NCBI GenBank assembly: GCA_033549025.1
Contig: JAWSUS010000020.1
Span: forward strand, 1-63,124
DNA length: 63,124 bases
Source: Desulfuromonadales bacterium
Lineage (GTDB): Bacteria; Desulfobacterota; Desulfuromonadia; Desulfuromonadales; SZUA-540
Direction of reading: 5' to 3'
The notes beneath the pieces are model-generated. The model searched no databases. It was given only the letters and a program-made list of their open reading frames with translations, and was not told the origin of the DNA. Made by a program: the position numbers and the translations under genes. This document shows, piece after piece, positions 47,262-54,501 of the stretch. Every line of letters begins with the position of its first letter. Position 1 is the stretch's first letter.

Positions 47262-49415
47262 ATGCCCCCGATCCTTTCCTACCAAAGCAGTCGATCCATT
47301 CTCACAACCCCCCTGGACCAGATCCGGGGGGTTGGACCCCGCCTTCTGGAAAAACTACGTCAAATGGGTGTTTCCTCACTGGAGGATGCCCTCTATACGC
47401 TGCCCCACCGCTATGAAGACCGCCGGGAAATACGCAAAATTGCCCATTTACGCCCCGGCAGAAGCGAAGTCTTCTATGGGGAGGTCCTTGCGGCCAGCGA
47501 AACGCTGACGCCCAGAGCCCGCAAGAAAATCTTCGAAGTCATTGTCTCTGACGGTAGCGGGCAGGTTTCCCTGAAATGGTTCCGCTATCAACGAAACTGG
47601 ATCAAAAGTCGCTTTTCCCCGGGGAAGAAAGGGCTGTTCAACGGCGAAGTAAAGCGGTTCGGAGCCCGCTCCGAGGTTCATCATCCCGATGTGGACTTTC
47701 TGCCCGACGAGGTCTCCCTGCAGGACCATCTGGCCTCGGACCCTCTCAATTTTGGCCGCATTCTGCCTGTGTATCCTTTAACCGAAGGTCTGTCGCAAAA
47801 AGTCGCCAGGAAAATATGGAAAGACATTATCGAGACCTACGCCCCCAGGCTGGTATCGCCAATCCCTGTTGACATCCTAAAGAAATACCGGTTGCTGCCC
47901 CTGGCCCCGGCCGTAGAACAGGTACACTGGCCTGATGACAAGGCCTCTGTGGAAGATCTGGAGGAGGGGAGGGACCAGGGCCGCCGATCCATCGTATTTG
48001 ATGAGTTTTTCTTTCTCGAGCTGGGTTTGGCGCTGCGTCGCCAGGGCCTGATTCTTGAGCAGGGCATTCCTTTTCAGGTAAATCACCTGTATACGAAGCC
48101 CCTGGCGGAAATGCTGCCTTTCAGACTGACGGCGGCCCAAAAAAGGGTTCTGGGAGAGATCAAAAGAGATGTGATGCGCCCGCACCCGATGAACCGTCTG
48201 GTGCAGGGGGATGTCGGCAGCGGCAAAACCATCGTCGCCCTGATGGCTGCCTTGCTGGCTATCGAGAACGATACCCAGGTTGCTGTGGTCGCCCCGACCG
48301 AAATACTGGCTGAACAGCACTACCTTAACTTTCGCCCTTGGCTCGAAGCGCTCAACCTTCAGGTCGGTCTTCTTTCGGGATCATCATCTCCGGCGGATCG
48401 CCGGAACCTCCTCGAAGGTCTTCGTGCCGGCACGATTCATCTCTTGGTGGGGACTCACGCCGTTCTGCAGGAGAATGTCGAGTTCAAACGACTGGGGCTC
48501 GGTATCATCGACGAACAGCATCGATTCGGAGTGAAGCAAAGGGCTGTTCTCCGCAGGAAAGGGGAAAATCCACATATTCTGGTCATGACCGCCACTCCCA
48601 TTCCCCGAACTCTTTCCCTGACCCTTTACGGGGACCTGGCTCTGTCCGTGATCGATGAACTACCTCCCGGCCGAACACCGATCACCACCCGGATCATTGC
48701 GGAAAATCCCCAAAATACAGCTTATGACATCATTTCGCGCGAACTGGAGGCGGGCCGGCAGGCCTACATCGTCTATCCGTTGGTGGAAGAGTCCGAAAAA
48801 AGCGATCTGAAAGCCGCCACCGAAGCGGCCCAACAGCTGGCTACGGAAATTTTTCCTCAACATCGGATTGGCCTGCTTCATGGGCGTCTGAAGACAGAGG
48901 AAAAAGAAACCGTGATGAATGCCTTCAAAAATCACCAAATCGATATCCTGGTATCCACCACGGTCATCGAGGTGGGCATTGATGTGCCTAACGCCACGGT
49001 GATGCTGGTTGAGCACGCGGAAAGGTTCGGGCTGGCCCAACTGCACCAGCTGCGCGGGCGGGTAGGGCGGGGCGAACATCGGGGACATTGCCTGTTGGTA
49101 CACTCCTCTCGGTATACGGAAGACGCCAGACAGCGACTGGAAGTCATGGCCAAAACTACCGATGGATTCCAGATTGCCGAGGCCGATCTGCACATTCGAG
49201 GGCCGGGCGAACTGATGGGGACCCGACAGGCCGGACTGCCGGACTTCAGGGTGGCCAATCTGCTGCGGGATGGTTATCTCCTTGACCAGGCCCGAGAAGA
49301 AGCCTTTAATCTGGCTGAAAAAGAGGATTTTTTACGAAACCCCGAGTATCAGGAGCTGCGAGAGGCGCTCATGGATCGCTGGGGGGATCGACTGGAGTTG
49401 GCTACGGTCGCCTGA
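47262..49415 (+). CDS. recG: ATP-dependent DNA helicase RecG
   Basis: QGDVGSGKT, DEQHRFG, TATPIPRT, QLRGRVGRG, RGPGE..G.RQ.G. Confidence 0.98.
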   Translation: MPPILSYQSSRSILTTPLDQIRGVGPRLLEKLRQMGVSSLEDALYTLPHRYEDRREIRKIAHLRPGRSEVFYGEVLAASETLTPRARKKIFEVIVSDGSGQVSLKWFRYQRNWIKSRFSPGKKGLFNGEVKRFGARSEVHHPDVDFLPDEVSLQDHLASDPLNFGRILPVYPLTEGLSQKVARKIWKDIIETYAPRLVSPIPVDILKKYRLLPLAPAVEQVHWPDDKASVEDLEEGRDQGRRSIVFDEFFFLELGLALRRQGLILEQGIPFQVNHLYTKPLAEMLPFRLTAAQKRVLGEIKRDVMRPHPMNRLVQGDVGSGKTIVALMAALLAIENDTQVAVVAPTEILAEQHYLNFRPWLEALNLQVGLLSGSSSPADRRNLLEGLRAGTIHLLVGTHAVLQENVEFKRLGLGIIDEQHRFGVKQRAVLRRKGENPHILVMTATPIPRTLSLTLYGDLALSVIDELPPGRTPITTRIIAENPQNTAYDIISRELEAGRQAYIVYPLVEESEKSDLKAATEAAQQLATEIFPQHRIGLLHGRLKTEEKETVMNAFKNHQIDILVSTTVIEVGIDVPNATVMLVEHAERFGLAQLHQLRGRVGRGEHRGHCLLVHSSRYTEDARQRLEVMAKTTDGFQIAEADLHIRGPGELMGTRQAGLPDFRVANLLRDGYLLDQAREEAFNLAEKEDFLRNPEYQELREALMDRWGDRLELATVA

Positions 49416-49440
49416 TCCTGAGCTTTTCGGGAGAAATCAC

Positions 49441-50016
49441 ATGGAACCTCAACAGATCGAATTAATAACCGCTATTCTCATTGGCATAGGCCTGAGTGCA
49501 GCCAGCGGATTCAGGGTTTTTGTGCCCCTGCTTGGCGTCAGCATTGCCGCACATTACGGTCTGTTGTCATTGTCTCCCCAGTTCTCCTGGCTTGGCAGCG
49601 AATCAGCGCTGGTAGCGCTGGCCTTTGCCACCGTGCTTGAAGTCGCAGCCTATACGATTCCCTTCATTGACAATCTGGTCGATTCCATCACGACCCCGGC
49701 CGCTGTTATCGCGGGGACACTGCTGATGGCATCCCTGCTCGGCGATGTCTCACCATTTCTTCAGTGGTCGCTCGCCATCATTGCCGGAGGGGGTACGGCA
49801 GGGTTAGTGCAGATGAGCAGCGTTATGGTTCGCGGGGGATCTAGTCTTATCACCGGCGGCCTCGGTAATCTCCTCATAGGGGGACTGGAACTTATCGGGT
49901 CCATACTCATGACCGTTCTGGCCCTGATGGCTCCGGTTATAGCCGTGACCGGCCTGTTGATCTGTTTGCTTCTGGTTTTTCGGTTTTTTTACACAAAACG
50001 ATCGGCGCGATACTAA
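49441..50016 (+). CDS. DUF4126 family membrane protein
   Basis: GLSAASGFRVFVPL, E..AY.IP..DN..D. Confidence 0.85.
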   Translation: MEPQQIELITAILIGIGLSAASGFRVFVPLLGVSIAAHYGLLSLSPQFSWLGSESALVALAFATVLEVAAYTIPFIDNLVDSITTPAAVIAGTLLMASLLGDVSPFLQWSLAIIAGGGTAGLVQMSSVMVRGGSSLITGGLGNLLIGGLELIGSILMTVLALMAPVIAVTGLLICLLLVFRFFYTKRSARY

Positions 50017-53257: not shown

Positions 53258-53285
53258 TGTTTACATAATATATCTTATCCGACGA
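53258..53285 (-). other. Chromosomal dif site (XerC/XerD recombination site)
   Basis: Minus strand TCGTCGGATAA-GATATA-TTATGTAAACA, the 11-6-11 layout of E. coli dif GGTGCGCATAA-TGTATA-TTATGTTAAAT; gene orientation and KOPS flip here. Confidence 0.85.
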
Positions 53286-53628
53286 TAACTATGGCGACCG
53301 ATCAAGGTTACAGTCCATAGGGAGTGAAGGCCGACAGGCCTTTAGCGGGCAGTGGTCGACCAGGGCGAACGCAACGAAGTTTTGCGTTCGTCGCCCTGGA
53401 CGATCACGTCGGCCTGCCCGCGTCTCCCTGTGGGCTGTGTTGGTGCCGGTGGTCGGCGAAGCCGGCCACGGTGCCAATGCAGCACGTGCGAGTCTAGTAA
53501 CACTGCACTTTTGTCTCATTTTTGATACTCATTTTTTGCCTGTTTTTTCACTTAACTGTTCGAAACTAGACGGGAAAAGCCTCTTTTCCCTCCGTCCGAC
53601 AATGTCCGACGCTTTTTAGGGGGATTTT

Positions 53629-53862
53629 ATGCGCAAAAACCGGGTTCGGAAATCGACTCTTGACACAAAAATTACCGTTCGCCTTGACCCTTCCCAACTG
53701 CAAAAGCTGGAACGGTTCGCCGATGGTGAAGGGATCACCGTGTCGTTCATGGTTCGTCACTTGGTCAGGCGCTTCCTTGAGGAAAAAGACCGCTCCATGC
53801 CGATGCAATTTGGCGCTGTTCAAACTTTTTCCTCGCCGATGGATGACTGGGACGACGATTGA
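53629..53862 (+). CDS. CopG/ribbon-helix-helix DNA-binding protein
   Basis: TKITVRLD..QLQKLERFADGEGITVSFMVRHLVRRFL; AGGGGG RBS. Confidence 0.78.
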   Translation: MRKNRVRKSTLDTKITVRLDPSQLQKLERFADGEGITVSFMVRHLVRRFLEEKDRSMPMQFGAVQTFSSPMDDWDDD

Positions 53863-53873
53863 GGGGGCCGTTT

Positions 53874-54383
53874 ATGCAGAAAAATCAGGGGCAAGCGCCC
53901 TACTCCACAACCCGTTTTGAGGCCGATATCTCCAGAGCCTTGAGTGAAGCAAACCGCGTGTTTAACCCGCTTCACAAGGATTGCGAGGTGTCTTACCGGG
54001 TCTTTGACCAGAAGAACGGCTTTGTGGTTCTGCAAGTCGCCCCGCCTTCGGGCATGACTCGGGCCTTCGTCGCTCTGCTCGAATCACTCCACGGGCTGTT
54101 TCGATTCATGGACAACAAGGCCAGAATCACGACTCTTGGCTCTGCTCCGGTGGATCTGTCGGAACTGGAACAGCAAAAGCAGTTCCAAAAAAACTTTCAA
54201 TCGAAGGTTTGCGCCCTCTTCGATGGTTTTACAGGTCAGGGACTAGCACGAAATGAGGCCGTTAAACGCACGAATGCCGCCCTTAAAGCGGAAAAACACC
54301 CATGGGCCAATCATGCAACCGTCTCGGACGTCTTGAGGGCTTCAGGGCGATTTAAGAAGGCCAAAACGGGAAAAAGGGTTTGA
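53874..54383 (+). CDS. Hypothetical protein (169 aa), possible C-terminal helical DNA-binding domain
   Basis: GAGGGGG RBS, follows the RHH gene, basic C-terminus; no HUH or tyrosine-recombinase motifs seen. Confidence 0.65.
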   Translation: MQKNQGQAPYSTTRFEADISRALSEANRVFNPLHKDCEVSYRVFDQKNGFVVLQVAPPSGMTRAFVALLESLHGLFRFMDNKARITTLGSAPVDLSELEQQKQFQKNFQSKVCALFDGFTGQGLARNEAVKRTNAALKAEKHPWANHATVSDVLRASGRFKKAKTGKRV

Positions 54384-54460
54384 CAATTTGACCGACAACA
54401 GCCCAACAATGTCTGACAGTCACAAGTCGACGTTTTGGGATTGGGGAGATTGTAGGTTTG

Positions 54461-54473
54461 CAACTACTTGATT
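54461..54473. promoter_or_regulatory. IHF consensus site abutting the dif-like site
   Basis: CAACTACTTGATT = YAANNNNTTGATW; a second match CAAACATTTGATT at 53216-53228. Confidence 0.55.
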
Positions 54474-54501
54474 TTATTAACAAATATATCTTATCCGACG
54501 T
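54474..54501 (-). repeat. Second, dif-like site with a degenerate XerD arm
   Basis: Minus strand ACGTCGGATAA-GATATA-TTTGTTAATAA. Confidence 0.8.

Follow-up and report, generated by a model that had tools for sequence, protein, structure and literature searches.

A 1216-bp unit at the chromosomal dif site of a Desulfuromonadales bacterium is almost certainly a Xer-integrated mobile element, and comparison with related sequences suggests, as the best reading, that it belongs to an old family of Rep-less elements of 0.7-1.8 kb in the class Desulfuromonadia. Taken as a whole, it is reasonably likely that the element is a non-autonomous TLC-like IMEX, replicated in trans and a satellite of plasmid-like IMEXs. 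The window analysed is the whole contig stretch of 63,124 nucleotides, and all positions refer to it; the features of the element are collected in Table 1.

Table 1. Features of the dif-integrated element, in window positions
Feature	Position	Strand	Remarks
Intact dif, left junction	53258..53285	-	XerD arm 53258-53268, XerC arm 53275-53285
Large branched hairpin	53310..53438	+	z -9.3; candidate single-strand origin or packaging signal (inferred)
Second hairpin	53437..53479	+	z -3.8
Motif-A hairpin	53486..53508	+	Loop 53493-53502; candidate double-strand origin for a Rep_trans initiator acting in trans
Two TGTCnGAC-type palindromes	53594..53611	.	Just 5' of the RHH gene; candidate RHH operator
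RHH/CopG-type DNA-binding protein	53629..53862	+	77 aa; Pfam DUF6364 E 4e-4 and RHH_1 E 0.0016, both below cut-off
Protein X	53874..54383	+	169 aa; dif-linked family; candidate Xer helper (inferred)
TGTCTGACA palindrome	54410..54418	.	55 bp ahead of the degenerate XerD arm; candidate accessory or operator site
Right junction	54474..54501	-	Degenerate XerD arm 54474-54484, dif-identical centre, XerC arm

The dif site and its junctions

Regarding the boundaries, an earlier sequence-only reading had reported two direct copies of an 18-mer 1216 bp apart, and this is confirmed by the coordinates (53267-53284 and 54483-54500) and by a search of the whole genome of 3,387,423 bases (G000), where the 18-mer occurs exactly twice, with no further copy at up to three mismatches. 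That the left copy lies within a full dif was borne out too: the site is composed of the XerD arm TGTTTACATAA, the centre TATATC and the XerC arm TTATCCGACGA, the dif pattern was found in 176 of the 233 genomes of the order, almost always once per genome (a reversed control pattern gave 0), and the arm assignment matches the Geobacter sulfurreducens dif as listed in Table 1 of PMC2731167. The right site, as had been described, keeps the same centre and the XerC arm, the latter with one difference, and has a degenerate XerD arm that departs from the left one at 5 of 11 positions.

At the left junction the XerD arm is chromosomal and the XerC arm would derive from the element, and at the right junction the XerD arm comes from the element and the XerC arm from the chromosome. 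The last base of the XerC arm is A at the left junction and T both at the right junction and in the same-genus genomes G001 and G002, a distribution that would fit such a crossover. As for the proposal that the right XerD arm is a dif arm minus one base, it did not hold up: when the two ends of related elements are compared, the degenerate arm departs from its counterpart at 4-10 of its 11 positions and follows no shared pattern, which makes a chance likeness probable. A both-strand scan for two inverted dif-like sites, as in the folded attP of CTX type, returned only the two direct sites.

Element junctions were examined in 4 of the 16 public runs listed; runs with small shares (X7, X9-X14) contribute nothing to the results. 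A contig of run X1 has the XerD arm of dif directly before the right flank, that is, the empty configuration; it reaches 8 letters beyond the shared core, its right flank differs from the window by one letter and one gap across 711 bases, and contigs of the element are present in the same run. In run X2, the read check suggested earlier for a junction of a 1216-bp circle found the joint: a contig connects 54482 to 53267, with a short side of 42 letters and 18 shared letters. Either a circle or a tandem pair would give this end-to-end joint at its attachment site; the chromosomal flanks of the window had no cover in X2, which proves neither a free circle nor another host. The empty site and the joined ends both exist, and the element comes and goes as a unit.

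Conservation of the interval across relatives, which the sequence-only reading had named as evidence against insertion, did not appear: among 40 relatives, the inter-site DNA matched dif and one 58-bp patch in G039, and nothing else. An empty site is seen in the dif-to-right-flank join of X1; G001 was dropped as a pristine one once the alignment revealed a relic of another element, about 400 bp long, after its dif. At the same place G002 holds a different element, of 2406 bp. The ndvB-like gene does not adjoin dif in either genome and is therefore a poor anchor for such comparisons. The segment 50028-53257 of the window consists of this ndvB-like glucan synthase gene (GH17 + GT2) and an AT-rich stretch preceding dif; it is missing at that place from G001 and G002, where a homologue of window 49270-50016 adjoins dif instead, and its best DNA match lies in another family (G019, 83%). 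It is probably a separate insertion. Farther along, a partial ORF at the contig end (62877-63119) resembles, by eye, an IS200-family transposase.

The host encodes XerD above cut-off (closest named match: Desulfuromonas sp. AOP6, 96%), XerC at cut-off and FtsK-gamma. The ORFs of the element and their Pfam matches include no integrase and no Rep; PF02486 and PF23343 are absent from G000, and a Zot prophage was not found there.

Genes of the element

The inventory given earlier for the DNA between the sites, namely a structured non-coding block, an RHH gene and a gene for a 169-aa protein, stands, with the RHH_1 match just under the Pfam cut-off. Homologues of the RHH gene stand upstream of X in the Rep-less elements. 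Associated with them is the TGTCnGAC palindrome, which occurs in the window at 53594, 53603 and 54410, and in 24 of 31 Rep-less sequences of type T (defined below) vs 2 of 16 comparison rows; its density is 1.74 per kb in the T sequences vs 0.08 per kb in the genome. In T elements the palindromes are placed either 5' of the RHH gene or in the interval from X to the degenerate arm, and many Rep-less relatives have a copy between X and the right junction. The simplest reading of these positions is that the palindromes would be the operator of the RHH protein; T-type X could conceivably bind them as well.

As for protein X, it has no named family in Pfam, PHROGs, PADLOC or NCBIfam; 126 relatives were collected at E 0.001 among cluster representatives. 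X is present in 44 of the 233 genomes of the order and, in a sample of the phylum, in 7 of 401 genomes, all within the class except for one weak match; Desulfuromusa kysingii DSM 7343, a type strain available in culture, also carries related elements. Phage and plasmid collections and IMG/VR did not contain X, and IMG/VR had no match to the dif-plus-hairpin pattern. The expected placement of homologues beside dif-like sites was found: X lies within 150 bp of such a site in 38 of the 44 genomes and within 400 bp in 40, and in the other four the site is at 802 bp, at about 2 kb (two genomes), or nowhere in the 12 kb fetched.

The structural model of X, built on an alignment of 89 rows, had pLDDT 90 and pTM 0.60; the predicted order is a helix, a beta-hairpin, a long helix, a C-terminal three-helix HTH-like bundle with an HPW motif, and a basic tail. 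With VIA-align, residues 94-166 gave generic helical HTH or winged-helix matches only, with Z up to 6.9, which is a common level; the N-terminal half was barely covered by the structure search, and no new fold is claimed. Foldseek returned no match at E 0.001 in the PDB and viral models, and the ESM Atlas gave unnamed clusters, all under 0.9. A comparison of the X profile with host FtsK-gamma gave a probability of 0.1, and the predicted complex of two X with host XerD scored 0.00 vs a mark of 0.32, which is no answer, neither for nor against. DUF3653 and HTH_XRE had no match in the 89 members of the X family at E 0.05.

Distribution and types of related elements

X loci show three ARRANGEMENTS, named T, R and O; the 68 hits, in 48 genomes, are divided into 14 Rep-less, 18 Rep-linked, 32 other and 4 at contig ends. 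Type T, to which the window belongs, has dif, the non-coding block, the RHH gene, X and the degenerate site, with complete units of 702-1818 bp. Type R, of 2.2-2.7 kb, has dif, a short X, a rolling-circle rep (PF23343 or Rep_trans PF02486), an RHH gene of a second kind and the degenerate site. Type O, which was assigned automatically and includes fragments, is X alone adjoining dif or past the last site of an array. In the tree of X, built from 53 rows that each cover at least 95 model positions, all 13 rows of type T make up one side of a branch (support 95/91), and the R and O rows are mixed; this placement argues that T elements are a lineage and not the product of repeated decay of R.

Among the 25 complete elements, the central 6 bp are the same at both ends in 23, though they vary with the host; the arm that differs between the ends is XerD in 18 and XerC in 5, and 2 are internal tandem units. 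The attachment site has a degenerate XerC arm and an intact XerD arm, the mirror of TLC, at L101, L025, L035, L124 and L118, and both arm designs are found with X. Rep-less copies lie side by side at L094 and in G398, where two X genes are 1697 bp apart; of the 13 genomes with a Rep-less element, three (G039, G151, G485) have a Rep-bearing element next to it, and G485 also has a frameshifted X. Extra small ORFs, a second RHH gene or cargo of 50-200 aa, are present in the left block at L078, L076, L103, L082 and L094. In 18 short metagenome contigs, no terminal repeats were found.

Plasmid-like dif elements of 2.2-2.7 kb with a PF23343 or Rep_trans initiator were located at L022:7838-10271, L025:3731-5986, L035:4273-6523, L113:5486-8051, L123:6180-15955 and L124:3728-6080, and G183 has four tandem copies of 2437 bp each. 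In these elements, integration parts the RHH end from the X-rep run and may silence rep. Orphan X genes (L109, L111, L112, L114, L115, L126, L128, L030, L108) are intact, code for 133-146 aa and start 25-60 bp from a single dif, with host genes after them and neither a rep nor a second site; they mix with the Rep-linked copies in the tree, and hosts may have retained them repeatedly.

Some Rep elements at dif are without X (G002, G021, G207) and have an unrelated 72-aa gene in its slot. Members of this 72-aa family (L022:7896-8114, L025:5707-5925, L021:3886-4104, L027, L100, L085, L188) lie 5' of rep in the slot of X, and also alone beside dif or after an element; the protein has no likeness to X, and the libraries searched gave weak matches only.

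Five genomes of the order have a Zot + Rep_trans prophage at dif. These are filamentous prophages of 6-7.6 kb (L180-L184, in G143, G097, G090, G096 and G122) that extend from dif to a half-degenerate site; an X gene is found at the same locus in four of the five genomes, three of them of one genus.

Non-coding block and origin-like motifs

The block at 53287-53500 folds strongly (z -7.9); Rfam had no match within the element, and a promoter scan gave nothing exceeding chance. Two Rep-bearing dif elements have the fold of the branched hairpin as well, downstream of rep (z -8.4 and -9.9) and with identities of 48/58 and 85/125, and four sequences of the hairpin have two-sided changes in 12 of 43 pairs.

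Two further motifs were defined from these sequences post hoc, some rows being close kin: motif A, a small hairpin with the loop nnnnGTAAYA, and motif B, CTTGTT-N8-CATATCT. Both mark the 5' end of rep in Rep-bearing elements. Motif A, with the same loop and stem, is there in 4 of 4 small X-Rep_trans elements, and motif B in 11 of 11 PF23343-Rep elements, two further rows of that set being without Rep, and in 2 of 3 close held-out ones. The Rep-less elements with an intact left end (n=21) have A in 10, B in 5 and either one in 14, vs a mean of 0.02 and a maximum of 1 in dinucleotide shuffles; 7 have neither under the strict rule, and ten T sequences that are open-ended or truncated, 2 of them with a motif, were left out. 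Motif A was found in 3 of 3 held-out elements, from two genomes outside the definition of the rule; a fourth fetched element was a duplicate of an earlier locus, with a frameshifted X and neither motif. In the host genome, the rule for A has 4 matches and that for B has 0.

The stem pairs of motif A alternate between G-C and C-G over 18 copies, 4 of which are bulged, that of the window included; the window copy is weak, with 6 bp, one bulge, -3 kcal/mol and z 0.4. Its putative G/T nick would fall between 53497 and 53498; RstA, the CTX initiator (pfam02486), is described in PMC4439123 as cutting a hairpin loop at the step from G to T. The motifs sit in non-coding DNA in Rep-less elements and inside the rep reading frame in Rep-bearing ones, where their conservation may owe something to coding constraint as well. 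A further 8 Rep_trans loci lack motif A, among them four filamentous prophages linked to dif, and so does the Rep_trans element of G485. Finally, the window pairs motif A, of Rep_trans type, with the branched hairpin known from PF23343-Rep elements, so the type of helper is not clean. A Rep-less element in G039 (L035:3024-4300) has both A and B and adjoins a PF23343-Rep element.

Two proposals were tried on motif A and not retained. The Reps of the filamentous prophages were rejected as replication helpers, since the motif is absent from their loci, and an origin of the orphan X genes by deletion from an origin nick had little support, the hairpin being kept in G142 only, out of 22.

Proposed mechanism and alternative explanations

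In the proposed mechanism, the 1216-bp unit, having a good XerC arm, a host-matched centre and a bad XerD arm, recombined with dif to leave one intact dif and one crippled site, the outcome seen in both the sequence and the runs. The exchange would be carried out by host XerC and XerD, with the bad arm keeping the insert stable, as established for TLC and the gonococcal genetic island. The motifs shared with Rep-bearing elements suggest that the excised circle would then be nicked at the motif-A hairpin by the Rep_trans initiator of a co-resident X-Rep element of 2.4-2.7 kb and copied by rolling circle, and that the branched hairpin might prime the second strand or mark the single strand for packaging. 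The weakest step assigns to X a function like that of XafT, namely aiding XerCD at the imperfect site, while the RHH protein, acting at the TGTCnGAC palindromes, would govern the RHH-X operon. For passage from cell to cell a further helper would be needed, most plausibly the dif-sited filamentous prophages of the order.

Integration of Xer type of a tiny element with neither integrase nor Rep, which the sequence-only reading had put forward, is upheld by the anatomy of the sites, the empty configuration in X1, the joint in X2 and the dif-linked family. The origin-like hairpins, the RHH-linked palindromes and the Rep-bearing candidate helpers were not part of that reading. Judged by the origin-like motifs, replication in trans through an origin mimic is likely; the missing helper in G000 counts against it. 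As for a role of X in Xer recombination, two things count for it, namely that X flanks that site under either of two gene orders, like xafT and xafV, and that the attachment sites here have no good second arm; the Rep elements that have the 72-aa gene instead of X count against X as a Xer activator; on these sequence patterns such a role falls a little short of an even chance.

A regulatory X is the rival with the most in its favour, though it is rather unlikely: X would be a DNA-binding regulator or anti-repressor, with a role like that of RstC, of the helper or of its own rep and would have no part in recombination, and its proximity to dif would reflect the gene order of the circle, integration cutting the operon at the attachment site. 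The modelled HTH-like domain with its basic tail would suit a regulator equally well, X is the first gene of the X-rep run in Rep-bearing elements, and integration still occurs in elements without X. However, X adjoins the attachment site whichever of two gene orders is present, it is also retained where there is no rep for it to regulate, and every element already carries an RHH regulator.

The sequence-only reading had left the choice between a satellite and a reduced remnant; the satellite is favoured, because the Rep-less copies form one clade and have the origin-like motifs of Rep-bearing elements. That the element is instead a decayed Rep-bearing dif element, which lost rep after integration and is now immobile, is improbable. 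Decay at dif sites is indeed common, as the relic in G001, the orphan X genes and the frameshifted X of G485 attest, and G000 holds no helper; yet both junctions and both genes are intact here, the clade of Rep-less copies is set apart from Rep-linked and orphan X, these copies have an RHH gene and palindrome of their own and may lie side by side, and the end-to-end joint is present in another run.

Still less credible is an autonomous mini-replicon, with X as a new type of initiator or with host proteins alone copying the circle. By definition X belongs to every Rep-less element, there are origin-like hairpins, and the same genome usually lacks a helper, but X is unlikely to be a covalent nicking enzyme, because tyrosine reaches at most 45% in any column of the 89-row alignment and is invariant at no position in the 10 closest rows; moreover, X is also located 5' of true Reps, and the smallest elements retain just its C-terminal domain of about 70 aa. 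Finally, a Xer-mobilised cassette that carries an RHH antitoxin with its toxin and persists through addiction is very improbable: the second gene does follow the RHH gene closely and there are weak RelB-like RHH matches (E 6e-4, far below cut-off), but X has no upstream RHH gene in 54 of 68 hits, apart from JetA at E 0.002 it had no match among toxin and defence families, and the origin-like motifs would be left unexplained.

If the satellite reading is true, IMEXs of 0.7-1.8 kb that have dropped Rep and retain just the origin of a helper would represent satellites of a satellite in minimal form, down to a unit of 702 bp; the IMEXs of the literature, as far as the available sources go, are large islands or else encode an initiator of replication themselves. 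X would also be a candidate answer to the question raised in PMC6744903 about which factors, DUF3653 proteins aside, make sites with a dead XerD arm usable by XerCD. A broader and speculative extension, itself doubtful, is a stack of three tiers, in which filamentous prophages would package the 2.2-2.7-kb IMEXs, these would replicate Rep-less satellites of 0.7-1.8 kb copying either class of helper origin, and all tiers would use new Xer activation factors (X, or the unrelated 72-aa protein), often kept by the host as a lone gene at the side of dif; if true, it would be a bacterial, integrating counterpart of the betasatellites of plant viruses. In practical terms, the 28-bp site with one small gene could serve as a neutral integration tool in Geobacter and Desulfuromonas.

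Comparison with known systems

The gonococcal genetic island is large and has transfer genes, unlike the two-gene unit of 1.2 kb described here. The beta- and delta-satellites of geminiviruses are Rep-less circles of about 0.7-1.4 kb, with one gene or none, that copy the origin hairpin of the helper and are replicated in trans. They are a functional analogy only, being associated with plant viruses and having no chromosomal integration, and no homology is claimed.

The largely open-access literature searched, at the level of titles and abstracts, yielded neither an IMEX from Desulfuromonadia nor a Rep-less IMEX that mimics an origin. LME-1 is described as an IMEX of XerL (PMC9765430), and the accessible part of a review of helper-dependent elements (PMC11389934) mentions neither TLC nor Xer.

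Like the RS1 satellite and the CTX and VGJ phages (PMC4439123; bioRxiv 10.64898/2026.06.12.731946), the elements of this family form multi-element arrays at dif. The Rep_trans initiator of those systems is reported to nick G/T in a hairpin loop; here the loop is shared and nicking would follow by analogy. Unlike the present element, RS1, CTX and VGJ encode their own Rep, and the attP of CTX is a folded single strand, in contrast to the two direct sites with a host-matched centre found here.

The closest likeness is to the TLC-phi satellite of Vibrio cholerae (PMC6744903, PMC9226527), which, according to those accounts, also integrates at dif with no integrase and no capsid genes, has an attachment site with an intact XerC arm, a matching centre and a degenerate XerD arm (5 of 11 positions in the present element), forms tandem arrays and has a small gene beside attP. 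TLC is recombined by XerCD at a site that XerD binds poorly and is stable after integration (PMC9226527). The genes xafT and xafV lie directly beside attP, and XafV indicates that Xer activators vary widely in sequence (bioRxiv 10.64898/2026.06.12.731946); XafT homologues are known from gamma- and beta-proteobacteria, with activators of other families allowed for (PMC6744903, whose DUF3653 lists could bear on host range), and XafT-like genes are used by Vibrio inoviruses and double jelly-roll prophages (PMC12715192). Unlike the window element, which is without Rep, TLC has its own rolling-circle initiator, Cri; XafT is HTH_XRE + DUF3653, X is without DUF3653, and the host phylum differs. In conclusion, apart from a Rep of its own and DUF3653, in which it departs from the type, the element has those IMEX features that can be tested, and as far as its sequence indicates its behaviour is that of a TLC-type IMEX.
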